A DNA stretch of 64,000 nucleotides, taken from contig CM119373.1 of assembly GCA_051294905.1 (NCBI GenBank), positions 6,944,001 through 7,008,000 on the forward strand, written 5' to 3'. The notes under the pieces were generated by a model. The model had not been told where the DNA came from. It saw only the letters and a list, made by a program, of their open reading frames with translations, and ran no database searches. This DNA comes from Botryllus schlosseri (Eukaryota). The translations under genes and the position numbers were made by a program. Of this stretch, positions 1-61,607 are shown piece after piece (position 1 is the first letter of the stretch; every line of letters begins with the position of its first letter).

Positions 1-131
1 TCGTATTGGGTTTGTAGTATTTTATACGAATGGAGCTTTGAATGAATAATCATCGTAACATTCAGGATTTGTTTCAGCCCAATATCTCGTGTTTATATCT
101 GTGTTATCGGTGTATTTCGACATGTCGAAGA
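1..131. repeat. Left arm of long terminal inverted repeat (partner 3169-3299)
   Basis: tcgtattgggtttgtagtattttatacgaatgg...gacatgtcgaaga is the reverse complement of tcttcgacatgtc...cccaatacga, with about one mismatch. Confidence 0.95.
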
Positions 132-1365
132 TATAAGTGGTTTCGACTGTTCGTGGTAAAATAAGGTTGTCTATGTGTCATCGTATGTATTTTTTTGTGG
201 TTATATTCCTGATGTAGATTGCTTTACTCGTTGTATCCAGCATATTTTACGTGTACAGAAATAACCAAGCTGTCAAAAGATGTATAATGCCAGTTCAGTT
301 ATCTTTCAGATATATGTATCTATAGGAAGTAAAAGCATCTACGATTGTCAGCTTGAAGTTATTATCGGAGCGTGCCTCGGAATTACCTATCCTGGATTCA
401 AAATCTTCATACTTCAATGGAGCTGATGTGAATGCTATAACTGCCAGCTGTGAATATTGCTGATGGAGAAAATTCAGCATCATGGGACATATCAAAAGGC
501 ACTGCTGAAATCAACTGAATGCCATTGTGGTTATTCTACGTATTTATTGGTTCAGCGTATTTAAATAAATCCAAAAAAGAGAAAGTAAAGATATGTCTGC
601 TATGTGTGGCGATGGGGTAGTGATTTCTGTAGAAGTGACTGAATGAGTTCATTGAATGAGAGAAACAAGAAATGCATGGGTCCTTATTCAGATGTAGCTA
701 GAATTGCCCAATTCACAGTGAAATTGGGGCTATGTTGGTTGTAACAGCAATCTGTGCACTTTGGGAGTTCATAATAAATATTAATTTTATCGAATCAAAA
801 CGGCACAAGATACAATCTAAACGGCGTACATGTATTTTATCATAATTACACCTATAGCTACCCATATACGTGTGTACATGAAGCTTGGCTCGTTTTGCAC
901 TTTCATGAAACCAGAAATTAGTTTGGATTCAAAACTAACTGGAGATGTGAACTGTACTGCCTCGTCACACGAAATACCGCGCTGTACTGTCTCGTACCAA
1001 AATGCTGAACTCTCGTTTTCAGAAACACCAGCTTCGGTTATGAGAAACGAATTTTTCTATTAAAATAACAACATAAAAAATGAAAACAGAAATAAATTAA
1101 TTGTTATCGACTTTACGTCGCCTTCGGCGTAATTAACACTGATCTGAAAGTCAAATGTGGGATAAGTTAGGGCTTAATATCTGCGAACGAGGTATAATAA
1201 ACGAACCGATTCTGATCTTAGTTCCAATTTAATGGAATTTCTTCTCTTCTTACGCGGCACAGTCACATTGAAGGCCACCCCACTACGGGTCCTACGACGA
1301 CGACGTCGTTTTGGGGCACTGTTCAAGATAAATGAACTAACATATGAGCAATTGTTCACTTGAAG

Positions 1366-3178
1366 ACACATTGATCGACATTTCATCCATCATTATGGAG
1401 CATATTACAGGATTTGCTGATGCCTCTACTTTTCCTCTGATGGCAGAAAAGGCAATACTAGTAAAGCCAGGCTCAGCGGAAAGTTTTCCATACCAGCGTC
1501 TTATCACACTTGGATGGGGAAGAGCAAGTTGAAAATTCTGACGCACAAAATTGTATGCCTTAGTGGAATAATACTGAAGCGTCATTGCAAATGATTGCAG
1601 TTCCTTGGAGTATTTGACTCCTCTTCCACCAGCTTCTAGCTTCATACGTTGCAAGAGCTCACTTGGTAGACCACTGAATGTTTGTGACATTACCTCCACA
1701 CACGAATCGCTTATCAAATTGTTCTTCTTAAGAGATGCAATGACCTCATCCAGAGATTTCACTTTTTTTTGCAGACGGTATGTTCTCATTCTGGCTGCAA
1801 CCAACCTCTTTTTAATTTCTGCGACCCTACGGCGTTGCTGTTGAACGACTTTTCGAGGAGACGTGTGCGGCTGTGCGCACAGTAGCTGTGGTTGTGAAGA
1901 ACTACTTCAGGTTCAGCGGTTTGTGCTTCATAATGCCGTTTCTTATCTGGAACTGCAGAAGGTCTCACTCGTCGGTTGTTTGAAGCCTGAAATTTGTGAA
2001 TTTTATGTTAACTAGGGCTAAAATAAAGGTAAGTAATTGGAACTCAAACTTCATAAATATATAGTCACTGTCTAGCGTCTACCGTACCTTTGGCCTCATA
2101 TATTTTGGAAAATTCAGAAATCTTGTCGGCACCGCATTCGTCCTTAAACGAATTCTCCCGCCAACACGGTAAATATCACTTTCTGAAAAATGATCAGAAC
2201 AGATGACCGACGATCTTGCTGGCTCCCAGTCTTTTCTAATACATTCTATCCATCTTTCTTTCAGGGAATCATTGGTAGGAAAGCTGCGTTGTAGAGAACA
2301 TTGTATCAGTTCACAAGTAATTCTATGATACGAAGCACACCAAATTGACCATTCTTTGTTATGAACGATGATAAAAGTAGCAGGAACATATGTGAAATTA
2401 TCTTGTTTGATTTAGATATATCTGTTACTTTCTACCCCAGAAGGATAAACTATTAGGTAACCTTTTAAATCCAAAGCCAAAGGTAAACCTAAAAAAAACA
2501 TCTTACGAGACAAATCGAACGTCTCGCACGCACAAAGCTATAATGAACTCGACCATGGAATTAGCAATTTGAACTTTAGTGTGAGCATCTGGCACCAGAA
2601 ATATAGAGTTATTACTCAACTATGCTGGACAAAACCGTGTGGCCCTCAATTATACCTTTATTTCTAGTCCTACCTCCAACCTTCACGACAATTTTAAGCA
2701 AGGATTGAGTACTAAGCTAGTTATTGGCTGAACTGCCCATACAGAATACAAACAGTGACCTGGCTGGTCATGCTATTACAGGTATACTGATGAACTGACA
2801 TGGTGCTAAGACTGCTGATATAGTCTGCTCTGATCATACCAACATCATTATACTTGTGACAAAATGTTCTGGTATAATGACACTTTAACATGGCCTATTC
2901 ATTAATGCTGTGGCTTATCTGGACATTGATTAACTGTGATGGTCAGGAAATATTAAAAATAGAAACTGATTCTTCAAAGATAGTCTTGCTGCCCTGCATA
3001 TTCTGCCATTCACTCACCGGTGAAATGTTCTTGGATGCCGACGCTTTACCAAAGACTCTTCATCGCTACTACCATCGCTATTACTTCTCATATATGACTC
3101 CGTGGATATCTTTTTCTGCCTTTTACTGCACCCATAGGCGCAACAAACGCTACCACCAAAACGAGATGTCTTCGACAT
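1366..3178 (-). pseudogene. THAP-domain P-element transposase, 3 exons (3018-3178, 2088-2283, about 1366-1986), frameshifted and truncated after DEMSI
   Basis: Exon 1 MSK...CCAYGCS...TFHR ends at a GTGAGT donor. Exon 2 FPTND...WIECIRKDWEP...ICSDHF...NAVPT is a C2CH THAP. Exon 3 has NHSY (HCF-binding-like) then, after a frameshift near 1850, YSKELQSFAMTLQYYSTKAY...LPHPSVIRRW...MMDEMSI. Splice phases are compatible. Confidence 0.9.
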
Positions 3179-3414
3179 GTCGAAATACACAGATAACACA
3201 GATATAAACACGAGATATTGGGCTGAAACAAATCCTGAATGTTACGATGATTATTCATTCAAAGCTCCATTCGTATAAAATACTACAAACCCAATACGAA
3301 TCAAATATATTTTAAAACTGGACGTTTTTCCATAAGCGCCTGTACTAAGTCGTCCAGCCTATCCCCCACAATGCAACTGTAACATGGTGACAACGCAAAT
3401 TTGCTTAGCCGGAG

Positions 3415-7565: not shown

Positions 7566-8224
7566 CAGTGGTTCCCAACCTTTTTCCACCCGCGTACCAT
7601 TTCGAGGTTTTATGCAGTGCTCGCGTGCCACCACAACCGAGCGAGATAGTGTAATGGTTATGCGTCCGGCTTCTCGATCGGTAGGTAGTGGGTTCGATCC
7701 CCGGCCGGGTCACACCAAAGACTCGAAAATTGGTATCCGCAGCTATCCTGCTAGGCGCTTAGCAAACACGGATAGCACGGAGGAGAAAAAAACGGGGGCG
7801 CAGACTAAATGACCTCACGGCGGTATCGCAACTCCGTCGTCAAAGCATCTCGGTGGTGCAGGCGAAAAAGAATATCACATCTCTCTCTCTCTCTCTCTCA
7901 CCTACCACCGTGTTGAGTTGCCTAACGCAGCGAAACAGGAAATGAACTGCCCATTTTAAGGCGCAGTATATGATTTCTGTAGTGCATTTGGAATTGTTGT
8001 GGTCAAATATATTAAAACGTAATTTGGTTGGGAAATCATCCCAATGCACGACTACACTCTTACCCGTAGGCCGTCATTGGTGGGATTGCCCTTACCCACG
8101 ACGACTTCAAAAAAGTCAAAATCAACCCCACGTGAACTGATAACTCCCTTCGGTCGAAAAAAATACAGAATCTACTCGCGTACCACCTCGAAGACCTTCG
8201 CGTACCACAGGTTGGGAACCACTG
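7566..8224. mobile_element. Non-autonomous hAT MITE containing a SINE
   Basis: TIR CAGTGGTTCCCAACC / GGTTGGGAACCACTG; flanks ccctagtc / ccccagtc (7/8 TSD). Confidence 0.9.
7639..7899 (+). mobile_element. tRNA-derived SINE, copy 1
   Basis: A-box-like TAGTGTAATGG, B box GGTTCGATCCC, (CT)n tail; second copy at 50046-50295. Confidence 0.85.
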
Positions 8225-8700
8225 CCCCAGTCAGTTTCTTCCAGATGGTCAGGATTGGACAGATCCAGTTGTCCCATTTCGTCTACATCTAAAGTATCCT
8301 GTCGGGTATTGATAGCCAAATTGTGAAGGCATGCAGTAGCAACGATTATGGCAAGGCTGGTTTTCATATCGGTTCTTAGTGCAATGCTAAGATACATAGA
8401 TCTTCGCTTCAACATACCGAAGCAGTGTTCGATGCGAGTCCTCGAAGCGATTTGTGCTTTGTTATACTTCCTCTACCCGGGGGAGGTCGGGTTCAAAATT
8501 GGAGTCATCAGTCGAGTTTGCAGCCCATAGCCATTGTCACCCGGCAGCAGACCAGGATTTTTTTTTCAAAGAATGGGTTATATATTGACGAATTTTCTAG
8601 AATCCGATTGTCGCGTGTCGATCCAGGCCAGCGCGATACAATATTGATGATCCGCCGGTGAGCATCACATATTCCTTTGATGTTTATTGAAAAATAACCT
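8225..8700 (-). pseudogene. Harbinger (HARBI1-like, DDE_Tnp_4) transposase, C-terminal half
   Basis: SINIKGICD..RIINIVSRWPGST.D, GDNGY, MTPILNP, YNKAQ..RTRIEHCFGMLKRR and ACLHN motifs, with stops and frameshifts. Confidence 0.85.
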
Positions 8701-8822: not shown

Positions 8823-9464
8823 TTGAAATGAGTCTAACTACATTCGCAATTAGGAGATAACGTGTCGTCCAACATGCGCCTTCGCTTGTTATATAATCCA
8901 TAAGTCTTTATAACATGCACTCTCTAATATCCTAATATGTATGGATCATTCAAATATGACATATCTCCAATCCTGTATTATTAAATTGTAAATACAAATC
9001 CAATTGTAGCTCCTGCACATGTGTATGAGTCAGCAAAAGTTAGTAAAATCGCAGTGTGCTACTGTAATATTAAAACTGAATTCTTTTTCGTCGTCGAGGC
9101 TCGGATTGCGAGATGCCACAGAAGCTTGAAGATTTTGGTGGTAGCCTAAAGAGCTGCTACGTTTATTATTAAACTCAAGAGAAAACAGCGGCTTCATTTA
9201 CCCGTATTTATTTCTAATCAGACAGTTTTTGAAAAATCTCATTTTTTCGCGCATTTGCTGAAAACTCAAGCAACACTCGCTCTTGCAAGTACAATTTTGC
9301 TCAGCAGACGACCATCTTTTTCGTAAAATGCATGCAGTCGATCGTCGGTAACAGTCTTCTGACTTGCTAGTTTGTTACCGGGTACCTGGCACCTCTCTGG
9401 CGTTTGCTAATGGTGTTTGCGAGACGTTCAACTTCATCATCTGCGCGTTTCAATATGCAGATGG

Positions 9465-11838
9465 CAGTGGCGGCTCGTCCTATAGGGCAACTGGGGCATT
9501 GCCCCACCTAAAATTCTGTTCAATAACAATTTAACCATTTATAGACGCACAGCAATCAATATATACCGAGATCACAGCGAAACCCGCGTTCTTCTTGTGC
9601 TTTCGCTTGCAAACGCCCATACATAGCGAAGTCTCTGCGAAAATCGAATTCTCTTCTGTGTTTTCGCTTTGTGAATGCCTAGCCGGGGCTTGCCCCGGTA
9701 GCGCTCATAACAAGCTTTCACTATCTATTCTCTCAAAGCCGCGCACAATAAAGAAACGGTGATTTACTCTCTCCTATTCGTAAAATGGCCGAGCAACCGG
9801 GGCAAATATGCCTACTCGCCCTTAAGGTGTGATGTAACAATCGTATCTATATCTGAACTCGGTTACCGTAATATGCGTTGAGTCGACCTTTGCTGGAATA
9901 GGTCGATTTTGACGGTGTTTCGCACCATGATAATTCTTGAAACTTGGTATGATATGTCGTGAAGGTAGTATTTAACACTGCTCCAAGTTTCAGGCTTGCT
10001 ACTTGAAGATAATGGTAGTAATTCCGTTTCCGAAGTTCAGTGTGTGCTGATCTATCATGTACATAGTACAGCAAACAGATTTTACTCAAAAGCCGGTATT
10101 GGTCTCCATTGATTTTGACGATGTTCTATACCGAGATCGGTCATGACATTTGGCACGGTAAGTGTTAGTATCGACCGCTGTAACAAGTTTTAAGTTTGTC
10201 ACTGAACTATGTGGGTGGTAATTTCGTTTCCAAAGTCGAGTAAGAGCTGACTCTTCTTCATTTATCGCCAACAAATTTACGCAAAAGCCGTTATTGGTCC
10301 CTATTGATTTTAACGATGTTCCATACCTAGATCTGTCATGAGCTTTCACACGGTATGTCTTGATTTTAGTATCGAACACGGTGCCAAGTCTTAAAGTTGA
10401 CACTCAATGATTGAGGCAGTTATTTCGTTTTCGAGGTCGAGTATGGTAGAGATGCGCGCTGATCTGATACTTAGCCTACCTACGTCATTGTGGATCTCAC
10501 GCAAAAGCCGGTGTCGGTCTGTGCTAATCTATATAGTCTGCGTTCCATAACGAGATCGGTGATGATATTTCCAATGGTATATCTCGATGATCGCATGAAA
10601 CAGCTAACCAAGATTCTCGGTTTGCATTCAAGTATTCGCATAATTTTATGTTCGCCAATGTCCATTTCACTGTGAAATTGTGGCCTTCAAACCATTTGCT
10701 TACAATCCCCTGTCAATTGCGATAGCTATTTCATTTTCGATGTCGGCTAACAGCTGATCATTCGATCAGCCTATTCCTCGATCTATTTTACTCAAAGTTA
10801 GGTGTTCGTCTGTTTGCATTGATTTTGACAGTGTACCATACCGGAATGGGTTATGAGATTGCGTATGCTACTTCTCGATGATTTCTTGTAACAGTATACT
10901 AAGTTACGGCTTTTATTCATGTATTTATTGATTAATATATTTTCCAACGGCGATTTCGCAGCAGACTTATAGACAGTAAGCCGTATGTGTTGTGTCACAG
11001 TCTCCAGTTTCAAGGCCAAAATGTCCTACGTTGTTCCGAGACCGAAGTTCCGAGGCTGCTGTCCTTAGTTCTTCAAAGACCATTCAAATTGATGTTCTGG
11101 ATTCAATATAACAGGCCCAATCTATGAGATAACAATTGCGTATGTGTCCGAACTCGTTGACCTTTCCAGTTAGGCTTACGCAATCTCTCGAGTTCTAGTT
11201 ATTGCAATTAGTCAGGTCAAGTCAAGTGCGAACATGAATCGTATTGAATCTTTATTCCGTACGTAGTTTACGCAGTTGCCTTTAGAGCAAAAATGAGAGG
11301 TCTAGAAGTTGTCCAGTCTATTGATCCAATCGTACGCCGGGTGCCTCCGCTTTGGTTGCCTATTATCACCTGGTCGTAACCAGAGATGGCCACAGTCCGG
11401 TTCAGGAGCCGGAGCAGGATTTCAATGTTTTTTTACCTGGCCGGACTGGATCCGGATTTCGAATTTGGGGTGACGGTCGGATTTTAGGGTCTATCGATTT
11501 GCGTAATCTATAACTCTACCATGAAATCAAAACGCATGCTACTAAGGATGACCTGATACTTGATTCGTGGCATAGGGACGATTCTTAGTTCACGTACATT
11601 TTGTAAAATAATCCTTTGATTAAAAATAAATGAATAAAACATTTGTTACCACACTTCAAGTCACGGCTCACCGGCAAACCTCTCGCGGCACCTACGTTAA
11701 AATCACTGTTGTCGGGAAATTCATGTGACCATCATAAAGTTACTTTTTTACGTTGGAAAACGCCATTGTGACGTCATGTTGATAAAAGTCGCTCGCAGCC
11801 CTTGCCCCACCACCCGATATTGTCACGAGCCGCCACTG
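9465..11838. mobile_element. Non-autonomous hAT element (2.37 kb)
   Basis: TIR CAGTGGCGGCTCGT / ACGAGCCGCCACTG; perfect 8-bp TSD GCAGATGG at 9457-9464 and 11839-11846. Confidence 0.95.
9880..11150. repeat. Degenerate tandem array of about 200-bp units inside the hAT element
   Basis: The motif ttacKcaaaagccg.tattggtc..attgatttt.acgatgtt..atacc.agatc.gtcatga recurs near 10081, 10277, 10496 and 10787. Confidence 0.75.
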
Positions 11839-11887: not shown

Positions 11888-13790
11888 TCACCCTTGTACG
11901 AAATAATGCCTGGATCCATGTTCGTTGCCGTTGTAGATTCGAAATTTGATCTGCTTGGTATGCTTTGATCGCTCGGAGGAAGCGTATCCTCCGTTATTTC
12001 TGGAATTCTCGGAATATCGGTCGCTGATACACATGATTCTTGAAGGATATTTGGTTTCAAATCGATTGCGTATTAATTTTATTGGAATGTACACACAGCC
12101 GGCGGATCCACTTTTTGATGCAGCTAAATCCGAATAAAGGCTACAATTTTGGCTGGACATTGCCGTCGTGAGTAATTTTCTGCAGATAATCTTTCCGGCA
12201 ACCGCTTTTCTAATCCTCCCGATACCGTCGTATTGTTGAAAGGCCACCTCCATTCTATGCGAAGAGGACATCGACACCTGATTTCGGGCAATCTCGTCAA
12301 CCGAGCTCGCCAAAGTCGCGACAATTTTACGTATGTGCTAGTACGTGAGCGCCACTTCGTTGCGAAGGAGATATTCGATAACGAGCACCGAAAGATTTGT
12401 GTACAATTCACCGTTTGAGTTTGTAAGCGCAACTTTTTCCTGTGCACAGTCGAAACTCTGGTTGCTTTGCTAGCAAATCTGAATGGAAAATAGGTCGTAG
12501 ATCGTTTCGTAACACGTCGGCGACTTTGTAACGCTTACTTTCCTAAATCGCTCGTAGTCGCGTTGGCCCATAACGAACAGGCCCTGCTGCGAGCGGGATT
12601 TGTTCTGGTCGACTTGAACCACTAAACTCGTAGTGTCGTCGACCGAAGCGAGCGGACGACTTGGCTCTCGCGCGGTAACTCTCCTGAAATACGACAGTCG
12701 TGTCCCTGATGCCATTCCGATGCCAATTATCGTCGCTGCCAAACAATCGCGGATATTTCCTTTGGTGATCGGTCGAGTAAGATCACCATTGAACGCTTCG
12801 AAGTTCATCATTCGAAAAATAAGCAACCGGTAAACTTTGAACCGTTGAATATCTCCACAACAGTGCGAACTTTTCAAATTTCCCCAATTCCTGTCAATAG
12901 CGTCCATGTCGAGCGACAGATGCTTTTCGTTCTGTCGTTTTCGCCTCTTGTTCGTGGTTCGCGAATATGTGGCGATGATCCGCAAGACTCAGAGCACGTT
13001 CTCTGGCGACGCTATTTTATCCAGTATCGTGGGAAAATGCAAACGCGCGAACTGCAAAAATCCTTTCAGTGACGTTAACGTATTGAAAATAGTGCTGGCC
13101 GACAGCTCCTCGCCCTGGTTGCCGATATATTTCACCAGTCGGTCGGGCTCATCAGCAACAAACTTTCAGCAACAAACTTCCTGAACGTCGAATTCATTTT
13201 GCTCAGCACCATATTCGGTTTAAATTCGTCCAGCAGTTGTAGGTTGCGATGCGTATGATACTCGGAGAGCAGCTGCGGTGAACGAATCGCAATTATTTTA
13301 TAAATCCAAGCGACACGGTTCGCGGACATACTCACGGTTGCAAAGTCCGTTTCAAACGATAACTTTTTCAAATTATTCCTGTTACGCTGAAACCGTGACG
13401 TATTTTATCTACGTTTGCGGTTCTCCAGTGCCCCGATACATAAGCTCGGCTTATCGATCGCGAGCAAATAGAACACCACGATTGTGAGCGATGTCGCTTC
13501 GTCGGTACCGAGTAACGTGCAGACATGAAAGTACCAATCGTTTGCTCCTGATCACGGTAATTGTACACGTTGCAATCCTACTCTTTTGCGATTTGAACTG
13601 CCGTCAGCTTGTGTACGGTTCGCAAATGTCGAGATAAATGTCCCTTAGTCCATTTTGGCAAATGCGGCACCTGTCTTTTCTTACGCGTTTTACAGGACGG
13701 ATCTTTATAGGACTGCTCGCGATACACGATAATATTAGCGGAGTTGTATGTGACAAATGACGAAAGACTCACCTGATCGCTTCGACATTC
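11888..13790 (-). pseudogene. C2H2-zinc-finger + tyrosine recombinase (Crypton-like) gene, degraded
   Basis: In N-to-C order across frames: HLSRHLRTVH and CSICSRSISRAYVSGH (zinc-finger-like); FKPNMVLSKMNSTFRKFV (core-binding-like); ASGTRLSYFRRVT (catalytic R); VQVDQNKS..QG (K); *HIRKIVAT (HxxR box); SHRMEVAFQQY (H and nucleophile Y). Confidence 0.65.
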
Positions 13791-13996
13791 GCAGTGTCCA
13801 TATCGCTCATCACCGAATCGCCGACTTGATGCGAGAGAATCGTAACAGCGCAGCGTTACACGCCAAGGTTCACCACTAAGGGCGTCTTCACACTGTGGAG
13901 TTTCCGAACCGATTCCGAAACAGTTAAAACTGGGAGTTGCAATATCAACAAATAAATAAAATCGTCGAACAAACTAGGCATGCAACAAAAATTCTT

Positions 13997-14140
13997 ACTG
14001 CTGGTAGAAAGTTGTTCGGCAATAGTGGTCCAAGCCTCATCCAACTTGTGCCGCTTCTTATGAATTGGTAACTGAACATTCCAAAGGCAGGTATGTTGTG
14101 AGATCAAATCAATTAATCTTCTATTGAATTCAGTATCCAT
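13997..14140 (-). pseudogene. MADF (Myb/SANT-like) domain exon
   Basis: LIDLISQHTCLWNVQLPIHKKRHKLDEAWTTIAEQL followed by a GTAAG donor. Confidence 0.85.
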
Positions 14141-14190
14141 AATCAGTAGTAAACTCTGTTATGAGACTATTAAAAACAACAACAACAGAT

Positions 14191-14250
14191 GATCAATTGC
14201 AATAATAACAAAATGATGAGGATCAATTGCAATAATAACAAAATGATGAG
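14191..14250. repeat. Perfect 30-bp tandem duplication
   Basis: gatcaattgcaataataacaaaatgatgag occurs twice. Confidence 0.98.
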
Positions 14251-14353
14251 AAACGATAAGTGTTATTCACTTTCAATGCCAATACATCAATGTGCAGTTG
14301 TGCACTTTACAACTTCACGAATCATTTGCAATTTACTCAATGCACAAGAATAG

Positions 14354-15990
14354 TCATTGGTTCTGTTGCCAGGGAACTGCACCAACTGTCAGGAAGTACT
14401 TCAATAGCTGAGATCTGTAGAAGCCAGCATCTCGAGTATGAAAATTTGAGCCAAATGAAGAGAGTTGGTGCAAGTTGACATTTTCCGGGATTGCCCAGCG
14501 CCAATTTCCATCCAACACATGGCCATCACTATTCACATCATCTCCTTGAATTGCTGATGATGACATCAACCTTGAGCCATTCTTGTTCTGTATAAAATTG
14601 TGAAGCACAACAGCAGCTTGCACGATTGCTTTAACACGTTCAACATGACAATTTATAGGCCTGTAAAATATTTGGAAACGTACAGCAAGTATCCCAAAGG
14701 CATTTTCAATCACACGTCTTGCTCTACACAAGCGATAATTGAAAATTTTCTTGTTGGCATCTAAATAACGACCAGGAAATGGTTTCATCATTCCCACTTT
14801 TAGTGGAAATGCATCATCACATGCAAAGTAATGCGGCATGATTATGTCAGAGGATGGTAAAAGGCTAGGCGATGGAATACCCAATGTGCCATTTTCAAAT
14901 CTACGGCCCATAGTGGAATTGGAATATACACCGCCATCACTGTGACGACCACAATCACCGATAGAAACCAGGGTAAATCGATACTGAGCGTCACATACAT
15001 CACATACAGCTAACAAAACAACGGAGAAAAAGCCTTTGTAATTATAGTAATCACTGCCAGAATTCAGTGGCGCTTTAATCTTTATATGCTTCCCATCAAG
15101 GGCACCAATGCAGTTAAGACATTGCCATATATCAGAAAATTCAGAAGCAATTCGAAGCCAGTCCGTGGTAGAGGGGGGCGCAAGAACAATAGGTGCGAGT
15201 TTGGCCCAAATAGCTTTGCAGCACTCATCTATAATTACTCCCACTGTTGTATGACCAACACGGAAGGAGAAGGACAGTTGTACTTTATCGGCTCCCGTGA
15301 TAAGGTATCTGAAAAATGATTATTGTTGCACTGACAGTGAACATACAAATATTTTTGTGCTCAAATAGCATAAATATATTTGATGAAGTAGAAATTCGTA
15401 ACGATATTTCAATATACATTTACTATCCATAACTATGTCACTGTCAGATCATATTGTTTCACTGATCAGAAATGTTCATATTGATGAAACAGCAATTATG
15501 GAAGCCTTGTCCACACCTTATTTCATGATCTCACCTATTTGACTATAAATTGACACACCTTAATAGACAACATGCGAACATAAATCATCTCAATATTACA
15601 TGGCTTCCTTTATTATTACCGAGATCTATTCTCCGGGCGAAATAAATTCAAAAACTGAGCTTTAGACCAAATAATTGCAGTAGTACCGGTACTGCATAGA
15701 GCTTAGGACAACAGCTGAATTATGAATCTATGCTAACCTCAAAGTCAGAATCAATCTTTTCTTTGGAGAGATAGCCTTGCGAAAATTAGTGTCAACATGT
15801 TTGATGTCATTATGAATAAGCATCAGCAAGGTGTGGAACTCTAAACTGGTCATCCTGAAATACGTGTGGCATTTCTCGGGATCCCCACCAGCTAAAAGGC
15901 TTTCTGCTAGCACAAACTCTGATTGAGTATCTCTTTCGGTCCACAATTCATGTACCCAATATGATCTAAAGAAACATAAACTGGCTATGT
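14354..15990 (-). CDS. Harbinger DDE transposase, intron-split (about 15732-15990 and 14354-15310)
   Basis: YFRMT..EF, AISPKKRLILTLR; FRVGHTTV, CIGALDGKHI, YYNYKGFFSVVLLAVCD, DDAFPL, FNYRLCRARRVIENAFGIL, LHNF. The 296-aa ORF is largely intact. Confidence 0.9.
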
Positions 15991-16393
15991 GTGCATTTGA
16001 CTTCTTTCAAATAGGCATATGCCGTGAACGGAGCACGCCCATGGCACATTTCACTCACCTTTCTGCAGAGGGACATAGCTCCTGACAAAGATAGTAAGCA
16101 CAAATTGCTCTAACTGAAATAGCTGCCTTTCTTCTATTCATATTCATCACTAAAATGAATAAGATCCTGCTATTTTATCACGCAAAGTGGTAGCTCAGAA
16201 AATCCCTCGAGGACCTACCTGCCACGATGTCGCCGATAAAGTAGCGCATGTTCTACCGGTACGCCGACGTAAATTAGAGAAAGAATTTCGTCGGCGACCG
16301 CCAAAATCGCGACTCCGGTGTGCATCGAATTTCTGCGATTCTCTCCTATTGTTGCACAACTGCGTCGCCAACTCCAGTGTGCATAGGGCTTTA

Positions 16394-17718
16394 AGGCCTC
16401 TGCACACTGACCTCGCGACGCAACATCGCGAGTCGTAAGTCGCGAAGCAATTCACACTGGTCTCGGCAGTGCCCACAAGCGGCAACTACAACTCTTGCGC
16501 GTTCTGTCCGAAGTATCGAAATGGATACACATTGCACAGCTCCCGATAGATCGCATAATGAATATTTCGATGGGTATACATGGGTTTGTCAATGAATAAG
16601 ATGACGCACACACTTTTCTATTAACGAACCAATATCATATTTCAATGCTGAAAACGCATAATCTGGGTGACCCAGTTGAACGCGCTATTTCCGGTTGCCG
16701 ATCCAAATTTCTGGAGTTCTAGCTGTAGCCTACTATGCTACACACACCAAGCCTTTCTGTATTCCATTGCCTCAGTGACTGCATCAACTGTCAACAGTGT
16801 CAAGCACCCATACATTAATTTCTCGATATGATAAAGAACAACATTCAAATGCATTATAATTTTATTTAAATGAATTAAGTCTTAACAATATTCAAATATA
16901 ACTCTGGGATTCTTTCCTTTTCAATCTTCGCCATCAAGCATTGAAATCGATCCGTGGGTCTGGTTGATTCATTCTCCTTAATGATGCATAGTCCATTTCT
17001 GACTTCTATAATATTAGCCGCTGCATTTGGTACCGAAGTCTGATAAAGAGGAGAATAGACGAAATCTAACATCAAGAATTACACTGCTGCTACCTAGTCA
17101 ACAAAAAGGTTTTCAGACGTCGTGTACCGAGATGTACCGGTATCTGAAATATACATCAGTGAACCCATGACGTACCACGATTATATGTACCTGCTTACCC
17201 AGTTTCAAACCAATGTACACTGAACAGGTTAAAATGAATCAGACAAGGTATATCTACTAAATCCACCTGTAGACATACTGAGAGTTTCGCGGTATCGGTA
17301 CTGCCGGTACTGGTTTGCCTTTGATAATTACCAAGTACCGGTACTGCTAAGTGCTTACAGTAGAATGCGTTCTTGCAATTAAGCTTCAAGTTCTAAAATG
17401 GCCTCAAATCAGTCTAAACTCAATAAGGAAACAATTATAGATGCCAAAACACGCAATACCCGGACAAACTATTGCGGTGACATAGAGCTAACGATCAGTA
17501 ACTGCTGACCAGTCGCGCGCAACTCGCGATAAAGTTGAAAATTATCAACTTTGTCGCGGAGTTGCGCAACCCAAAGAATGTAGAAGGACATTCTTTGGCG
17601 CAACCCTGTCGCAGACGGCATGTTGCGAGTTGCCGGCGACTCCGGTCTGCATGGTCCAGTCGCAGACAGGCGCGATTCTCTCGTTTTATCGGGTCGCGAG
17701 CTCAGTGTGCAGAGGCCT
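16394..17718. mobile_element. Non-autonomous Harbinger element
   Basis: TIR AGGCCTCTGCACACTGA(c/g)CTCGCGAC of about 26 bp; TTA on both sides (16391-16393, 17719-17721). Confidence 0.9.
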
Positions 17719-19562
17719 TTACAGCTACGAGGTTGCGATTCGGGGTAGTGTCGTAGCGCCAAGTCGATATAATATACTGCCTTTTGGAAAGGATGGATAA
17801 AGGTAGAACAAACTGTCTGTCTTTGGAAGAGATGGCTTGATGTAGGGTGTCGGCACTACTAATCCCAGTAAAGATCTGATTCCATACACCGGTTATTGTA
17901 AATATATACTTATTGTATACTGCGGAGTGGTTTCTTGTAACGTATTGTAGTTTCAAAATGGTGAGGGAAAGGTGTATAATATTATTTGAAAACTATCACG
18001 AAGCTCAATAAATCAATTCGCGAAGAATTCAAAATCTTTTTGATGCGAATGAATCCCCCTCTCATGCACCACTGCTGAACATTATCATTGCTAGCGATTT
18101 TGTTGTATAAATAAAATAATTTCATGAGTAACCAAATTAAAAATGACTAACATCAAGTGTCATGATCACAGCTTACATCACCTGTCGTCCTTGAAAGACA
18201 CCAGCAGTACCGGTACCGTAAGTCAATATGACCGGCGAATTTTCGAAAAGCATGAAATAATTGACAGTTTGGTGAAATGAGTACGGCGCCACCTGCGTTC
18301 ATATTGCACATATTTCGAAAATATTTACGGAGAATATTACGTTCACACCAGAGGGGTTGTTACGTTCGTATTGAGTGATTTCGCTAAATGTTTACCGGAT
18401 AGAATGTTACCGAAACTCAGTATGAAGACACCCTAAATGCGCGCCGCTACGAAAATAAGGCCGATAAATTTTCCAGTGGCATTGTTACGTCACACAGAGA
18501 GCTAGATTCAATATTTTGCGAAAACCGACTTGTACCCGATCACTGTAGCGTAGCACGCGATCGCCGAAGAATGGAGACGGCCCTTCGAAGGATCAGTCTT
18601 GCCTGGGTATGGTTTTAGTAGTCGAATGGCGACACCCACGTCGCAGCGTTCAAACTTGTACGAAGATCACAATAGATTAGTACACGAGCAACGAATAAGG
18701 CAACCAGCATGATTAGTACGAGTTTTCACTGAAAAAATACGGCGCAAACGACGATTCGAATGTAGTGACGTCGAATTCGCGCTACCACGTCACGATTTTT
18801 CAACTGTGACGGAAGTAGTTGAGTGACATGCATATGGCTCTTCAGAGGTAAAATGGAAAATAACCGTTCAATATGGCTCTGGTTTAGAACAGGGGCGGAT
18901 TCCAGATTTTGGAGATCCGTATTCGTATATTGAGGGCCGAGGCCAATTCCTCTCCTTAACAAATCAGCACTTAAGTGCGATTCTCTACTCAATTAAGTGC
19001 TGATCGATACTCAAACTTAAGTGCGCGTCAATTCATGTCACTTAGTTGAGTATCGATTTTCAGACGTCATTTTCGAGAATCGTGTTGCCAGATTTTATTT
19101 ACTCCGAATCTGATATGCGTGATTGGTTTCGTCATGACAACAGGAGGCTGTCGTCCGAAAATCGCGACCAAAGCGTATGGTGGGCTACACACAGATATAA
19201 CGAATCGGCAATATCGCTGTGCTTGGGCAGTGTTGACTGTTAATTGGAACCGCTAGTATGCATAGCATACGTTTCGCTAGCAGCTGTCGGCGAACGTAGT
19301 GCAACTCTCAACGAAACTCCTGGTACATGTACCAATCCAAGGACCCTAGGCTCTCACAGTGCCGGCTTTATATGCACTTCCAGTGCAGTAGGCCTACCTC
19401 ATATTGCAGCTATATTCTCTCACATTCAACTGGTCGCATGTACTATCCATATTATCCGTGGACCCTAGGTTATCAAAGCTCCTGCAATCTAACTTTTTAA
19501 CGATACCCTGTTATTAAAACTTTCAGCAAGTAATAGTGTACCGTACACCTGTATTCTGCAAA

Positions 19563-20363
19563 ATGAACTTAAACGAATGTGAAGATCCAATTGAAATTCT
19601 GGAAATACTCGAAGAGCGAAACCACCACCACACTCCACAAAATTATTTGAAAGATGTTCACAATCCATTAGAAATATATACAGACAAGAAGTTTTACAAG
19701 CGCTATCGCTTTTCCAAAGATTCCGCTATCGATATTTTCAGGATTATCAAACATGAACAGTCATTATCTGTCCGACCGCAATGCCTGCCCCCACTGCTCC
19801 AATTCCTTATGGCGTTACGTTTTTTTGCTGAAGGCCACATACAGCAATCGGATGCAGACTTGATGGGTGTGTCACGCAGCACAGCAAGGCGCAGCATTCA
19901 CAGAGTAGCCTACGCCATCGCCACTCAGAAGCCTTCCTTCATCCAGCATTATTATGCTGATGTTCAAAAGATCAAGGAAGGCTTCTACAAAATTGCTGGT
20001 TTTCCTGGAGTAGTGGGGGCAATCGATTGCACTCACATACCTATCATGTCACCAGTAGGTAGCGAGGCCGAAATATTCCGTAACAGGAAAGGATACATGT
20101 CGATTAACGTACAAGTTATATGTGACAGTGATCGCAAAATCTTGAACATAGTTGCAAGGTGGCCCGGCTCCACTCACGACTCGCGCATATTCAACAACAG
20201 TGCAATCAAGGGTGATTTCGAGGAAGGCGTGATTGACGGGATCCTCGGTGACAACGGCTATGCCTGCCTCCCATATTTAATGACGCCATTAATGAATCCA
20301 ACATCAACACAGGAAAAGCGATATAATAAGAAGCACATCTCCACGAGATCCCGCGTTGAGAAC
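19563..20363 (+). pseudogene. Harbinger (HARBI1-like) transposase, 3'-truncated after RSRVE
   Basis: FYKRYRFSK, ALRFFAEG, FPGVVGAIDCTHI, NRKGYMSINVQVICD, ARWPGSTHDS, LGDNGY and YNKKH motifs; the GxLKxRF/LHN end is missing. Confidence 0.9.
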
Positions 20364-20489
20364 AATGGAGGCTCAGTAAAAGACACGATCAATGAATGAT
20401 TGGTCGCTCTCACAGGTTACAACAGCGTTTCGCGAACAATCCGACCACATGCAAGGCACAGTGATTTTTATCGATATCGATTGCTTTAT

Positions 20490-22900: not shown

Positions 22901-23239
22901 TCAAGAAACCAACAAAAACCAAACCAATTGGGGAAAATCAGTGAATTAGTACGCCAGCAAGGTCGATTGCAGCACTCCACCACAGTCGACATACGCAATC
23001 CCGTACCTCTACTCAAGCATATCCCGCGACGGACTGATTTCGCCGGGAACCTATCTTATACCGTTGAGGGGCGTGGCAGTTTCCAATCATTGTATATATA
23101 TCATTGTTCCAACCAGTAGCCGCATTGCTACAGGAGAAGAAAGTTTCTATTTATTATGTCTGGACGAGGGAAAGGAGGAAAAGGCTGCTAGCTACTGCCG
23201 ACTGACCGCCGACCTGCGGACTAAACACCCGCACGGGAA

Positions 23240-24451
23240 ATGGCAACCTCAAACCGGTACACCCACCGTCCAAGGTCCCTGGACGTAACAATCCCAGACG
23301 GATTGTTAATCACAGATGTCTACTCCGCTATATTAAATTTCGCCCCCATAAAAAACCTAACAGACTATATTGAATCCATCTATCAAATCGGACTGAAAAC
23401 CTATAACATTACTATATTCGACATGGAAAGCACGCAAAACATAAAAAAAGAATTCATCGATGTGACTCGAAACGGTATTAGAACACCGAACGGAATAATC
23501 AAATTCAAAAACGCTCAGGAGCCATACCAAGCAATCAATATCCGGGCCATCCCTACCGAAGCCACAGATCGGGAAATCGTAGAAATGGTAGAAAGAACCG
23601 GATGTGGAAAGGTCACAAAAATAATAAAGATAATGCACCGCGGAACAACAATCCATAATGGATACAGACGAGTCCTAATCCAAAAATACAAGCCTGGAAA
23701 CCTCCCTCCCTTCTTCAATATCAGAGGACTCTCATGCAAAGTATTCTTCCCACCAGGAGAATACGAGCCAGAGTGTTTCCGCTGTTTACAAAAAGGCCAC
23801 ACAGGACGAAACTGCACAAACCAGACAGTCTGCATTGAATGTAAGCAAACCGGACACCGTAGGGCCAACTGCCCAGACCTATTAACGGAATTCCCCACAC
23901 CCAACGAGGTGAAACAAACAAAGACGATCGAAAGAAACGAAGAAAACAAACAACAAAACACACCCCCCATGGGAGAAAATAATGAAAATACAGAGGAACA
24001 TGATGAAAGCAACTCCGAACAAACACAACAAGAAACAGAAAACAATGAAAATAACATCCTACCAGAACTTACAGAAAGTTCTGCCGACAAAAAAAGCGCC
24101 GAAACAGATATGTTTGAGATATCTGAAGAAAACCCCCCTTCCGATCTGGAAAACCCGACCTCAGAGGGTTCAGCAGAGAACAAAACCCACACAGAAGTGG
24201 ATGATCCTGATCCATCTGACCCCTTGGAACCCCCCTTAATCCCCCCAAGAAACAGAAATAGAGGGAAAGGAGTATCAAGCGTACCTATGGCGATACCAGA
24301 ACCCCTCCAAGTCCAGATCTTCAAGCATATAGAATGCATCCCCACCCCACTAGAACAAAAAACCCCAAATAGCCCAAGACCAAAGAGAGCCTACCAAAGC
24401 AGCCCCGAGGAAGGAAAAAACGACAATAACAAAAAAATACAAAAAAAGTAG
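23240..24451 (+). CDS. LINE ORF1 (RRM-like region + 2 zinc knuckles), 403 aa, intact
   Basis: CFRCLQKGHTGRNC, CIECKQTGHRRANC, HNGYRRV, and a low-complexity C-terminus. Confidence 0.92.
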   Translation: MATSNRYTHRPRSLDVTIPDGLLITDVYSAILNFAPIKNLTDYIESIYQIGLKTYNITIFDMESTQNIKKEFIDVTRNGIRTPNGIIKFKNAQEPYQAINIRAIPTEATDREIVEMVERTGCGKVTKIIKIMHRGTTIHNGYRRVLIQKYKPGNLPPFFNIRGLSCKVFFPPGEYEPECFRCLQKGHTGRNCTNQTVCIECKQTGHRRANCPDLLTEFPTPNEVKQTKTIERNEENKQQNTPPMGENNENTEEHDESNSEQTQQETENNENNILPELTESSADKKSAETDMFEISEENPPSDLENPTSEGSAENKTHTEVDDPDPSDPLEPPLIPPRNRNRGKGVSSVPMAIPEPLQVQIFKHIECIPTPLEQKTPNSPRPKRAYQSSPEEGKNDNNKKIQKK

Positions 24452-27400
24452 ATGAGAAAAAAAAAAATCAAAACATGCGAAATAAAAGAAGAAAGCAACG
24501 CACAACCCCCCTCTTTTAAAATGGAAGGCCTACCCCCCACCCAATCTCCAGAAGAAACAAATCAACAAACGGGAGTTCTTGGATGTAACCTAATCTCCAT
24601 AAATGTAAACGGTATACAGAGACGCTGGGACGAATTTAGACACTTCGTGACGAGCTCAAAATCGGACGTATACTGCGTCCAAGAAGTCCACCGCCTACAT
24701 GAAAGGAAATTTAGACTATGGGCTGATAATAACGGTCTCCTATACTACAAAAACTTCAATTCAGAACCACACAAGGCCGGAGAAAAACACTACTACAAGG
24801 GAACCACTATCCTCATAAAAAAAAGAGAAAGTGAAAGACTATACCCTTGACCACCAAATCATTGTGCCGGACAGGGTCCAGACCCTAAGCCTTAGCGCCA
24901 ACGACGAGGTCAGACTAACCATAGTAAATATATATGCGCCAACCAATAACAAAGAAAAAAAGACCTTCTACAAAGAAGTAACGCATAACCTCCAACAATA
25001 CCATGGAAACATGATCATAGCGGGGGACTTTAATATGATTACGGCCAAAGAAGATAGCGAAAAACATCACGCCTTAAAACTGTCTGAAGCAGCAAAAATC
25101 TGGAAGGAATATACAATGCAGGAAAACATTATAGACCTATACAGATGGCGCAATCCATTTACAAGATTGTATACAAATACAAACAATCTCAACTCAAGGA
25201 GAATAGACAGGGTCTATGCTACTCAAGAAATAGCCCACTCGAGAACATCAGTCAACCATCATATAAACGGAATATCAGACCACAACTACTACCTCAGAAT
25301 CATCGTAAAGCCAAAAGACCCAGAGAAATGGGGCGGCGGCTACTGGAAAAATAATACAACCCACTACACAAATAAACACTTCAGGAAAACACTGGAATCA
25401 AAATATGAAGAAGCCGCGCTAAGGAAAGTAGAATACCCCAACCACGCACAGTGGTGGGATGATTTTAAAACAAAAATAAAAAAGACTGCCATCTCCTTCG
25501 GGATAGAGGAAAAACGAAAACAAAAAGAAAAAGAGAAAACACTCCATCAACAACTCGCCTCAAAGAACCTGCCCTCGAATGAGAGAAAAACCATCCTAAA
25601 AAACTTAAAGAAAATTGAAAAAGACAAACTACACCACCAAATGAAACTGCTATACAAGGAAGAGCTAGAGGAGGACGAAAAGCCAAACCGCGAATTCTTT
25701 GAAAAACTAAAAACAAAGCAACAACGGAAATCAATCGCCCGAGTACAAAAACGATCCGGGACCATAACAGAAAACAAAGAAGAGATAATACAAGAAGTCT
25801 ACTCCTTCTACCAAGAACTTTGGCAAATGAATGAAAACACAAATGCCAAGATGCAAAAAAAACCTAGTGGAACTCCTAGAGAAAAAACTAAGTAAAGAAC
25901 AGCACGAGCAACAAGACCTGCCAATCCTAGAAGAGGAAATAAAATATGCAATCGAGCAACAAAATAAGACAAAGTCCCCCGGGCCAGACGGCCTATCGTC
26001 AGAGTTCTACTCCACCTTCTATTACCTTATTAAGGATGAACTAGTTCAACTATACAACAACGCTCTACTCCTAAACAGCACGCCCAATACATGGACGGAC
26101 TCAACAGTGAACCTCATATTCAAAAAGGGAGATCCCGAGATGCTGAAGAATTGGAGACCTATCTCCCTCACAAATGTCGACTATAAGATCATGATGAAAA
26201 TCGTAACGAACAGAATGAAAGAAAATATTGACCATCTAATATCCCCCCAACAAAAATGCGCTGTCCCATCGAGGCAAATGTCAGATCTACTACGAAATAT
26301 AAAATCGGTAATGGAATACCAGAAAGAAAAGAAACAGCCAATCATCATAGCAAACTTTGACCAGGAAAAGGCCTTTGACCGTGTCCCCCACCCCTATATA
26401 TTCCAAATATTGGAAAAATTCAATTTCGGAACCAAAACAATAAAATTGATAAAAAAAGCTATATGACAATGCCACAAGCTGCATCGGGATAAACGGATTC
26501 ATCACAGACAAAATCCCCATCAAAAGAGGGCTGAGACAAGGATGTCCACTATCGATGTATCTCTACACCCTGACAGCGGAACCCCTGATGATCAAAATTC
26601 TGGGAAACAAAAAAATAACAGGATGTAAAATTGGCAAACACAATATGAAGACACAGCAATACGCCGATGACCTCACCATCATCACGACAAAGCTGGAGTC
26701 GATCGAGAGAGCGTACGAAGAATTTGACTACCTCGAAAAAGCCACAGGGCAAAAAATAAACAAAGAAAAAACTCAGATCCTGTGCATCGGGAACACGTTA
26801 GACCACATCAGAGAACAAAAATTCAAAGGAAACTTCGTTAAAAGCATCAAGATACTAGGACAGCAATTTGGACACGATCAGGTAAACGAAACATGGGAGG
26901 GCGTCATAAAGAAAATCGAAGGAAAGCTAATGAGCAACTCCCACCGTCAGCTCACGTGGATGGGAAAAAAGAACGTAATAAACTCTTTCGCCTCCTCAAT
27001 TATAACCCTACATGCAAGGACCATACCTCCCACGCCAGAATTCACAGCACGCCTCATGAGAACGATATTCAGATATCTCTGGCATCCTGAAAAAATAGAG
27101 ATAATCAGAAGAACAACGCTCATACGAAAACCAGAAGAAGGCGGAATGAACATCCTACACCCCCAAAGCCAGGCCAAGGCATGTGAACTGGAAAAAATAT
27201 CAAAACTGTCGAGAATAGAACATCCAACGGAGTATTGGCACTTCTACGCCCTATACGAGCTTAGGCCCACGATCAGAAAATGGAACGACCCACTCTTTAC
27301 AAATAGCATGCCACACCGCACACTACTATCAAACCAATGGAAAAAGAATACAAGCATTGCCGAAAAGCTAAATTGGGAACAGGAAGACTGGCAAACAGCG

Positions 27401-28038
27401 TCACTAAAGGATATACAATGAAATATACAATGTAATGTATATACAATGAAATCAAAAATATACATGTGAATACAGACCAACAAGGAAACAATGAAATCAA
27501 CTGGAAATCGCTTGCAATGAAAAACAGATACACATTCGGCCTGATCAAAAACAAAGAAAGAGTAACAACTTACCGTATTGCCTGCGACGGATACCTATTC
27601 GGCTGGAAGAGAAAACAAAAGAATATACTAGGACACAAAACTGGGAAACTTGCTATAACATCGTGCAGACAATGTGGATGTAAAAAAGAGACACTAGACC
27701 ATATCCTATACACATGCCCAAGTGCTCGTAGGATACTTGATCGACTAGAAGCAACCCTGAGACAAGCGACGGGAGCTAAGACATCCCTAAGCGGAACGCT
27801 CCTTGCAGAAAAGAACTGGGACAAGAACAACCTCGCCACGAAACTCCTCTTGACCATATACAAAGAAAAAGTAATACAAAATCGAATCATCTTGGAAGTG
27901 GAAAATGAAATGGAAAGCGACACAACCGAGTACATAAATTCCACAACCAAACGTGTCCTGAACACGGCAAGATCCAGACTCCGCCTAAAAGGCCAACTTC
28001 CAATGATTTTAGATAGACTCCGGACTGTACTAGCGTAA
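24452..28038 (+). pseudogene. LINE ORF2 (AP endonuclease - reverse transcriptase - zf-RVT), four frame breaks
   Basis: SINVNG, VQEVH, NIYAPT, GDFN, RIDR, SDH; KSPGPDG, WRPISL, DQEKAFDRV, GLRQGCPLS, QYADD; CRQCGCKKETLDHILYTC. Breaks near 24825, 25860, 26460 and 27420. Confidence 0.93.
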
Positions 28039-50295: not shown

Positions 50296-50634
50296 ATGAC
50301 ATGGTTTTGTCTCAGATCCACATTACTGATCAGAAGATTTGTCGCGCACATTGCGGCTGTCCAAATGGCCAATTCCAGTGTCACCATATGGCTGCAGTTC
50401 TTCTTTGGCTATGCAAAAATATAACACGCACCGATATTGAATGCCAGTGGATAAAGCCGAGAAAGCAAATTGAAAGCGCTGGTAAAAGAATTTCTCAAAT
50501 CTGGCCAAATCAAGGACAAGGTATAAGGTATAAGGATTTGGTATAAGGATTTGGCCATGACAAAAAAGGACTTCTTTTTGAAAATAGCTGGGGATCATTT
50601 AGTACTCGATAAAAATCACGAGTACTATGACCAG

Positions 50635-53093: not shown

Positions 53094-53280
53094 ATGACCT
53101 GGTGCAGGGCGGCTTACACTTGGCAAACGCGGAGTTATGCCATTTTGTGGTTTGGACACCAACAGAACTGTTGGTCGATAGAATACCTAAGAAAAGTGAT
53201 TGGGAGAACAATTTAATTCTCTTGAGAGACTTTTATAGGAATACCTTTTTACCTCTCCTGCTATCGCTTGAACTCTGAGA

Positions 53281-55077
<1,797 letters not shown>

Positions 55078-55549: not shown

Positions 55550-56419
55550 ACTAAATTATACGAAGTAGTATTATGAGTAACAGCAAGACCTGGTCTTCCT
55601 TAAAAAGAATATTTACATTCCAGTTACGGCAGTTAGAATGATACCAAATTGTAAATCGCTGCATCATCACAAAAACCAAGTCGAAAGTACGGTACTCTTG
55701 TCCTTGTCTGGCAATAGCAGTCTTCTCAGCACTATCCTTGAAACAATCAATAACTTCCTTCTGATTGGCATGGTTAAACCTAAATTTGGCTGACCGAAAT
55801 TCTTGATTATCTTTTTCGATAAATGGCACAGACAAATAGCTAACCAATGCCTGCAGTTGATGCATCTATTATTAGGCCAATTTCACTATATAAACACTTT
55901 AATAAAAATCTAATAATTGTGGGTTATCTTAAAATCATTTGCTATTGAAGCTGACTCGATTACGCTGTCTTTGGGGCACACAAAATACCGGTAGGCTATG
56001 ACATTTGATACCACCAAACAAACAAGACAACATAGATCAAATGTTATTTATATTTATCATTCCCACTAGCTTTATTAATTTCAGTCACTTTCCAGTCGTT
56101 TTCTGGCAATTCAGAAGTCGATGGAAAGACTACTCCGAATTGTTTTCTCATCCATTATAACAAATTGGCACGTTATACCCTGGCATTTTGCGCGGCTGCA
56201 AAACAACATAAACCTACCTAGTTAGTGTCTAAAAGTCCTGAAACTAGCTAATAAGTCATAGAAGATAACATAAAACCCAGAACTGTACTTCAAACAACCT
56301 CACTGAGACAGAAAATACGGTTTGAAAACATACCAATATCGCAAATTAACACAGGGAGCGGCTATCTAAGATAGTTGTTTGGCCCCAACGAACCACAAGT
56401 CACGTGACTTTCGAGCCCA
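55550..56419 (-). mobile_element. Degraded right-end fragment of a second copy of the element A family
   Basis: Second AGTCACGTGACTTTCGAGCCCA|AT end; decayed THAP exon; ORF 55551-55865 homologous to 53608-54786. Confidence 0.85.
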
Positions 56420-56421
56420 AT

Positions 56422-57849: not shown

Positions 57850-58461
57850 AATAAAGACATATTAAAAAGCACAGTACGAGTCAAAGACACCTGCAATAGT
57901 GGGGGATTGGAAGTTAACTAATGATGCGCATACTTGGACAATTTTGTCGATGTATGGTCTCATCGGTGCGGGATACAGTGCAATATTTTATAGTTTCTCA
58001 TCCTTTCGATCCCACGTTCCACGTGTATCCTGCTTCTAGCAATTCACCGCGTGAATGCTGCCTCCTCTTTTGTGAGCTGCTTTCGGGTACTCAAGAATGA
58101 CGGCAAATTCAGGTAAATGCCACAAGGCAGGAGGTCGTATATGAGAAAGCCTTTATCAGCTAGTAGGAGATCACCAGCCTGCAATAAAATATGATGAGCT
58201 TATGATGGATCATAATATCCGTTATAAGTTATAGGCTACTTGTAAATGAGTAATGAGTCCAGATTTAGCAGTTATTTCCTTGTCCGATATGCTTCTTGGG
58301 TATCCATCCGGCACAAAAGTAATTGCACCATTTGGTGCAACTGCAATAAGATATTTCACCGTTGAAGCATGCTTGTAATTGCTGTATGTTGATGCAGCTG
58401 CATTGAGATCTTGCCTTGGGCTTTCTATTCGAATTTCTGTGCAATCAATGATCGCTCGGCA
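57850..58461 (-). pseudogene. Element B transposase, DDE part
   Basis: CRAIIDCTE, YSNYKH..TVKYLIAVAPNG, ISD, LADKGF, RSRIHVER.I. Confidence 0.88.
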
Positions 58462-58463
58462 AT

Positions 58464-61605: not shown

Positions 61606-61607
61606 AT

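Follow-up and report, generated by a model that had tools for sequence, protein, structure and literature searches.

In the genome analysed here (495 Mb, with TTAGGG telomeres), the remains of a gene with zinc-finger-like motifs and tyrosine recombinase residues lie within a stretch of 64,000 nucleotides, hereafter the window (G000:C3:6944001-7008000). A preliminary description of this DNA had proposed a degraded gene, Crypton-like or viral, at 11888..13790. The locus raises the question of which enzyme was encoded there and what kind of element it served. What remains there is a recombinase-like gene with introns that is now dead and belongs to a little-described family. We consider it fairly probable that the intact sisters of this dead copy mobilise Crypton-like DNA transposons inserting in telomere repeats.

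Gene structure and decay of the window copy

The gene is located on the minus strand and runs from a start at 13801 to an end at 9198, with eight exons and GT..AG introns of about 60 bp (Table 1). It reaches beyond both limits that had first been set for it. The flanking DNA said to resume at 9100-9464 past a hAT insertion does continue the gene, as coding exon 8 (9440-9198), but homology stops at 9183. The stitching of reading frames, earlier held to be necessary, is partly explained by several true frameshifts, but most frame switches are introns, as indicated by joints in contigs of an RNA-type run (a run guessed to be RNA). A single unspliced and merely frameshifted ORF is ruled out by these introns.

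Table 1. Features of the recombinase gene and its surroundings in the window (positions of the window).
Feature	Position	Strand	Remarks
Upstream element remnant	18434..18710	-	Matches C49:7051-7353; further 5' part absent here
Harbinger-type element, later insertion	13880..18433		3-bp TAA TSD; DDE_Tnp_4 frame 14357-15319; nested repeat ~16393-17572
Gene 5' leader, up to Harbinger insertion site	13802..13879	-	
Exon 1, start codon, 29 nt	13773..13801	-	Projected from intact C49 copy; its intron is inferred, no RNA joint in the window's subfamily
Exon 2, first C2H2-like finger (~13669-13612)	13582..13712	-	1-bp deletion (frameshift) near 13655; joint 13522/13580 in RNA-type contig of sister copy
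Exon 3, second C2H2-like finger (~13475-13413)	13336..13524	-	Acceptor mutated; 13-bp deletion (frameshift) near 13382
Exon 4, helical, core-binding (SAM-like) region	12870..13272	-	C49 projection; SAM-like match weak; 14-bp tandem duplication (frameshift) near 13179; TGA at 12991; 1-bp deletion at exon end (frameshift near 12870)
Exon 5, catalytic domain first half	12539..12812	-	R 12700-12698, K 12601-12599; acceptor mutated; joints 12812/12870, 12478/12540
Exon 6, catalytic domain second half	12097..12478	-	(Q)HxR 12340-12329, H 12259-12257, Y 12232-12230; premature stops TAG at 12472 and 12340
Exon 7, acidic low-complexity linker	11892..12038	-	Matching intron 6 and 7 joints in sister subfamily
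hAT-type non-autonomous element (label from TIR and TSD), high-copy, later insertion in intron 7	9465..11838		2374 bp; 14-bp TIR; 8-bp TSD at 9457-9464/11839-11846
Exon 8, conserved helical C-terminal domain	9198..9440	-	TAG at 9369; 1-bp and 4-bp deletions (frameshifts near 9351 and 9288); natural stop 9200-9198
Last bases common to other copies	9183..9197	-	Element 3' part absent from window

Splicing was supported by relatives of the window copy. RNA-type contigs of one relative skip the sequence corresponding to window positions 12479-12539, 12813-12869 and 13523-13579, and the matches of other subfamilies break at the same places as the exon joints. The sister gene in C30 has six GT..AG joints. 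RNA-type contigs gave five of them and raw RNA reads gave two, with 4 and 6 reads; one joint was found by both. The raw reads mismatch C30 at many sites and hence come from sibling copies. A poly(A) loose end is located just past the stop codon of the C30 gene, whose intron 1 rests on one loose contig end. None of the data sets listed as containing the sister gene was recorded as RNA. In the raw RNA run, no reads lay over window positions 12006-14000, which says nothing either way on the expression of the window copy.

The reconstruction of the reading frame and the search for intact copies led to three intact siblings of the window copy in C9, C16 and C49, with 591 amino acids. Neither indels nor premature stops nor broken splice sites occur in the genes of C9 and C16, and the C30 sister gene is open over 653 amino acids with these splice sites. 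Compared with C49, the window copy has six frameshifts, four premature stops and two broken splice acceptors and is thus dead, which bears out its earlier description as degraded. The value of dN/dS was 0.32 over 460 codons between C49 and the window copy.

Only the part matching C49:6962-9641 survives in the window of an element of 15.7 kb, and neither telomere repeats nor element ends are left. The closest copy, C3:8968k, is 95.6% identical and has three frameshifts, one stop and the Harbinger insertion site in common with the window copy, but lacks the 2374-bp insertion, which we assign to the hAT type by its TIR and TSD. We infer from the partly common lesions that a dead copy was duplicated and that the hAT-type element came later. 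Between these two dead copies, dN/dS was 0.67 with 22 changes. Most likely, the window copy would have got into the chromosome interior long ago, died, been duplicated once as a dead copy and then received the hAT-type insertion. At the DNA level, the stretch with the gene matches the genome at 38 places; at the protein level, there are 90 matches to the catalytic region. Around 18 loci of decayed copies from several subfamilies, some of them as duplicated pairs, form a cluster on the chromosome arm with the window copy (C3:0.98-9.2 Mb).

Other mobile DNA was observed in the window as well. Transposons lie at 1-3299, 8125-8472, 19518-20396, 44610-47384, 50632-53096, 53611-54840 and 58461-61608; among them are several frames of the DDE_Tnp_4 (Harbinger-type) kind, elements whose inverted arms are long, and a P-element-like frame flanked by inverted repeats of 134 bp. 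A 377-codon frame at 56350-57480 matched a YqaJ-like recombinase domain (E=2.8e-08). A non-LTR retrotransposon with zinc knuckle, endonuclease and RT occupies 23225-27418, within A-rich sequence. This LINE (23-28 kb) was rejected as part of the element, as it is not common to the other copies, and so was the RT at 25.8-27.4 kb as the element's own, which is on the other strand, comes with the endonuclease and is absent from the other copies.

Predicted protein and its fold

The gene is predicted to encode a zinc-finger tyrosine recombinase with two C2H2-like fingers, a helical region, the catalytic domain, an acidic linker and a conserved C-terminal domain. The two zinc-finger-like motifs (CxxC..H-x4-H) noticed earlier are present in exons 2 and 3, as is the helical region ahead of the catalytic part in exon 4. 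The fingers are conserved across subfamilies, and the last His of finger 2 is replaced by Asn in the window copy. In a three-frame translation of the minus strand, the previously described order R...K...HxxR...H...Y was seen in the motifs SGTR (R), QNK (K), Y-x-H-I-R at 12343-12329, SSH (H) and QYDG (Y), except that the first His position is Gln in the intact copies (Y-Q-H-L-R) and a stop codon in the window copy. In the intact copies, the other residues of the set (R, K, the second R, H and Y) are all there and are conserved.

Exon 6 was translated for 15 copies from subfamilies that are 31-97% identical. Both [YF]xH[LI]RK and S-x-H occurred in all 15 and [HQY]YDG in 14, the other being truncated; given this conservation across subfamilies, the motifs are not due to chance. 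The catalytic residues are spaced Arg-24-His-9-Tyr, and both spacings, Arg-to-His 24 and His-to-Tyr 9, match those of Cre and lambda Int. The sister subfamily is 59% identical to that of the window on the amino acid level. Between the two, dN/dS was 0.165 over 547 codons at a dS of about 2.

A structure model was obtained for a natural frame of 235 amino acids that includes one retained intron (pLDDT 50.7). It places the first Arg at the start of a helix that follows another helix, the Lys between two strands and Y-Q-H-L-R within a helix. The first 12 Foldseek ranks comprised topoisomerase IB, Tn1549 integrase, XerH/XerA, ResT and TelK, none with E<=0.001. With VIA-align, the first 12 and, separately, the first 33 rows were all topoisomerase-IB/tyrosine-recombinase chains (Z 4.3-6.3), mostly matched over residues 1-163 up to the HxxR helix, with 6.0-6.3 for topoisomerase IB and 5.2-5.5 for recombinases. 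The low-confidence model is thus consistent, if weakly, with the expected DNA-breaking-rejoining fold of the catalytic part, and top ranks were taken solely by this class; a recombinase and a topoisomerase-IB-like enzyme are not separated by the fold alone. For the finger/core-binding part, the fold search with the model placed integrases 6th and 37th, amid helical bundles that are unrelated, and Phage_int_SAM_1 matched a sister copy with E=0.017, which is below the Pfam cut-off.

Sequence searches turned up no named relative. No Pfam family was found above the cut-off, with no catalytic-domain match in 13 pieces, and a PDB sequence search gave no match; the query pieces were split by introns in both cases. 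Among 1.84 billion representative proteins, only five unnamed fragments matched and no named relative, and a clustered protein set contained four unnamed fragments and no longer relative.

Telomere-repeat-bounded blocks around the intact relatives

The element is larger than the stretch first described, as had been supposed. A complete element of the window's subfamily is present at C49:4348-20085 (~15.7 kb) between the terminal telomere and an inner (CCCTAA)n tract. Its cargo consists of decayed rDNA and spacer pieces that are 69-91% like the canonical unit. In the stretches examined, the right-end motif is followed by CCCTAA at seven out of seven sites (C9 twice, C49, C5, C8, C16 twice); at the C5 right end, a single repeat is followed by 18S rDNA. 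The left end is preceded by AACCCT at both sites available, one after the C49 telomere and one in a head-to-tail junction in C16 where only CCCTAACCCT lies between the two ends. No terminal inverted repeats were found at the ends of this subfamily. The C16 copies seem to have the wrong polarity. This probably stems from scaffolding, since they are preceded by an N-gap and a CCCTAA tract of 4.3 kb. This gap and tract, near C16:22219400 within the scaffold, suggest a misplaced chromosome end.

The sister subfamily follows the same register with unrelated end sequences. Its right end runs into CCCT at all 20 sites, nine of them with further repeats and eleven directly joined to a left end. CCCT likewise stands before the left end at all 16 sites (6 of which were read from the left and 10 from the right side), namely three terminal telomeres, one inner tract and twelve direct junctions. 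The junction is surrounded by an imperfect (10-of-11) inverted repeat (null 0.001-0.011). Taken together, the blocks of both subfamilies measure 15-23 kb, have precise ends that abut CCCT in (CCCTAA)n, are stacked head-to-tail and carry rDNA inside. A search for terminal direct repeats had been suggested for the ends; a 4-bp direct repeat CCCT is indeed present at both ends of intact relatives, but the window copy has lost both of its ends.

The sister unit also occurs in tandem (C30 as a whole and C132; L024:3786-8170), as near-identical units of 17-19 kb, each with an intact recombinase gene and a variant rDNA unit of 18S (~93% like canonical), 5.8S and a 28S of only 1.7 kb. The canonical rDNA stretch examined (C28:1-30000) is without the recombinase gene. 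A satellite of 166-178 bp lies upstream of the gene in both subfamilies. Relative to the gene, the cargo is upstream in one subfamily but downstream in the other, which means that at least one end of each must have been newly acquired.

Decayed copies, the window's included, were all away from telomere repeats where checked, which counts against strict targeting. Among nine interstitial regions of the window's subfamily, seven were without CCCTAACCC and two had degenerate runs only, and of the 16 regions surrounding decayed copies or other subfamilies, not one contained two tandem telomere repeats. A degenerate TTAGGG-rich run near C3:7.07 Mb was considered as a relic telomere and rejected, as it reads as a separate palindromic repeat; a second interstitial degenerate run, near C3:8.83 Mb, resembles it.

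Several further observations concern the ends. TTTAACG occurs 22-23 bases before CCCT at the right ends of both subfamilies and, in the window's subfamily, also 3 bases inside the left end. An interstitial copy near C3:7075050 (L179) departs from C49 at CCCTAA, ~85 bp past the stop; at the matching C49 point (near 9712) the sequence is CCCT, in this single case possibly an older right end. C9:3747-12033 is a segment of 8.3 kb with an intact gene, inverted relative to C49 and bounded by an inverted repeat of 8 bp that lies beside the telomere. A distant subfamily (39%) of the recombinase gene resides in a 32-kb block at C5:20750123-20785050 and C1:13153716-13186111 (98.6-99.8% identical), which also has a 403-codon frame with a weak P-loop match (E=0.073). 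Long frames at C5:20795825-20802725 (80.8-87.7 kb of the C5 tile) resemble what we take to be a Polinton-type set (polymerase, ATPase, integrase, capsid-like).

Competing explanations and known systems

As intact copies reside within telomere-repeat-bounded, rDNA-bearing blocks, these are likely mobile elements that use the telomere repeat as landing site. The ends would fit excision, a circle and integration: the predicted enzyme would bind both ends, recombine the common CCCT core and excise a circle, whose junction would then recombine with a CCCTAA tract so that CCCT is restored on both sides. Head-to-tail arrays would result if insertion were repeated or rolling, and 5'-truncated copies would result from erosion with telomerase healing. 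Circles and empty sites were not observed; the check proposed for circular junctions turned up head-to-tail junctions in chromosomes only. Counting against integration, the 12 CCCT-only junctions are all in one near-identical array, of which one junction holds ~31 repeats, and they may come from one event or from repeat-tract contraction. Moreover, CCCT was counted by hand at the end of 5 of 18 other tract borders as well, which puts the chance of a common left register at ~0.08.

The main rival explanation, in our view unlikely though to be taken seriously, regards the recombinase gene as a passenger of blocks that are copied between chromosome ends by telomere-repeat homology through TALT/Y'-like break-induced replication, with arrays arising by unequal exchange and tract contraction. 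Tandem arrays of a short telomeric repeat and a block form in this way in C. elegans (PMC9066243), and here many copies are 5'-truncated and telomere-capped at varied points (C5, C8, C9, C16, C22), inner tracts are short, with 1-79 repeats where terminal tracts have several hundred, the gene is missing from some blocks (C5, C8, C11) and the cargo differs widely. However, such copying leaves unexplained an open spliced gene under purifying selection in two subfamilies (dS ~2), the same CCCT register in both and the inverted repeat at one junction, and at several right ends the homology extends over just 1-2 repeats. More specific to the enzyme is the idea that it belongs to the topoisomerase-IB or telomere-resolvase type, whether selfish or retained by the host, and processes telomeres/rDNA by nicking or relaxing repeats, not by integration. 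Topoisomerase IB has a non-His residue at the first HxxR position, which the His-to-Gln change resembles, and its chains tie with or slightly outrank recombinases by Z. We nevertheless regard this idea as very improbable, given that the dozens of copies, which are dispersed, mostly dead and fall into at least five clades, behave like transposons, that the 32-kb element does so too with its presence at two unrelated loci, and that the distances from His to Tyr and from Arg to His fit recombinases.

An origin of the gene as integrase remnant of a large, nimavirus-like endogenous DNA virus appears very improbable. Telomere-inserting nimaviruses encode C2H2, SAM-like and YR domains and rDNA-inserting ones have multi-exon YRs (PMC10871703), and the weak P-loop frame beside the distant subfamily would suit a virus, too. 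But the complete elements of 15.7 kb and 23 kb (C49, C4) contain 37 other long frames, none of which matched a Pfam family, so that the element is very probably not a nimavirus; viral contigs contained no relative, and a viral fold library gave no match at E<=0.001. The viral alternative of the preliminary description is therefore not upheld. The same 37 frames agree with its statement that RT and RNase H are lacking, and a YR gene without RT together with 4-bp CCCT repeats at both termini of intact relatives supports the Crypton-like label.

Crypton-like transposons inserting in telomere repeats thus remain our preferred reading. A wider version, which we put forward tentatively and with some doubt, holds that non-viral spliced tyrosine recombinases recombine at the TTAGGG repeat, mobilise anything between tracts, carry rDNA to new ends and amplify the 28S-deleted unit. 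If the enzyme recombines at CCCT in telomere repeats, this would be a direct mechanism for rDNA movement among chromosome ends and for orphan rDNA arrays. If true, it would mean a eukaryotic, expressed, site-specific recombinase with a telomere target, and a recombinase would drive the turnover of subtelomeres and rDNA in an animal. The copy in the window is a fossil; its intact, spliced sisters make the family directly testable.

Tyrosine recombinases are also encoded by DIRS/Ngaro/VIPER retrotransposons. Unlike these, the elements here are without RT/RNase H and introns are kept in all copies. Yeast Y' elements are tandem blocks bounded by telomere tracts at chromosome ends and spread by repeat homology. 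TALT blocks of C. elegans spread by telomeric-repeat homology, too, and are likewise bounded by short telomere tracts and in tandem at chromosome ends, but no recombinase is described for them (PMC9066243).

Regarding YRs that insert in telomere repeats, a literature search yielded those of crustacean nimaviruses alone; a non-viral DNA transposon of this kind was not found, although subscription papers, Repbase or supplements may describe one. In Kawato et al. 2023 (PMC10871703), the nimaviral telomere- and 28S-associated YRs have non-viral relatives and combine C2H2, SAM-like and YR domains with an incomplete catalytic set, an arrangement that the present family may share, its SAM-like part being weakly supported. 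Telomere-repeat insertion and the multi-exon genes of the 28S group are further similarities, drawn from architecture and target and not from sequence. In contrast, the carrier here is a non-viral block of 15-23 kb in a TTAGGG genome, compared with a virus of 280-400 kb in the same source.

CryptonV elements are YR DNA transposons with some microsatellite-specific families (Kapitonov & Jurka 2012 as cited in PMC8869645). By description only, the intact copies of two subfamilies in a (CCCTAA)n microsatellite are similar, and the decayed copies, which do not sit there, are not; telomere-repeat targeting and rDNA cargo are not mentioned for CryptonV in the part of PMC8869645 available. For Cryptons in general, Kojima & Jurka 2011 (PMC3212892; Goodwin 2003 as cited) propose excision and integration of a circle at a 4-bp core. 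The elements here share with them a YR as sole enzyme without RT, a short 4-bp direct repeat at both termini and an end-to-end junction as expected for a circle. By these features, and not by sequence placement in a named group (A, F, I, S, V), they are Crypton-like. They differ from Cryptons in that the protein has two N-terminal C2H2-like fingers and a separate C-terminal domain with no DUF3504 or GCR1_C Pfam match, in their units of 15-23 kb with rDNA and satellite cargo, and in a terminal repeat that is part of the telomere hexamer.
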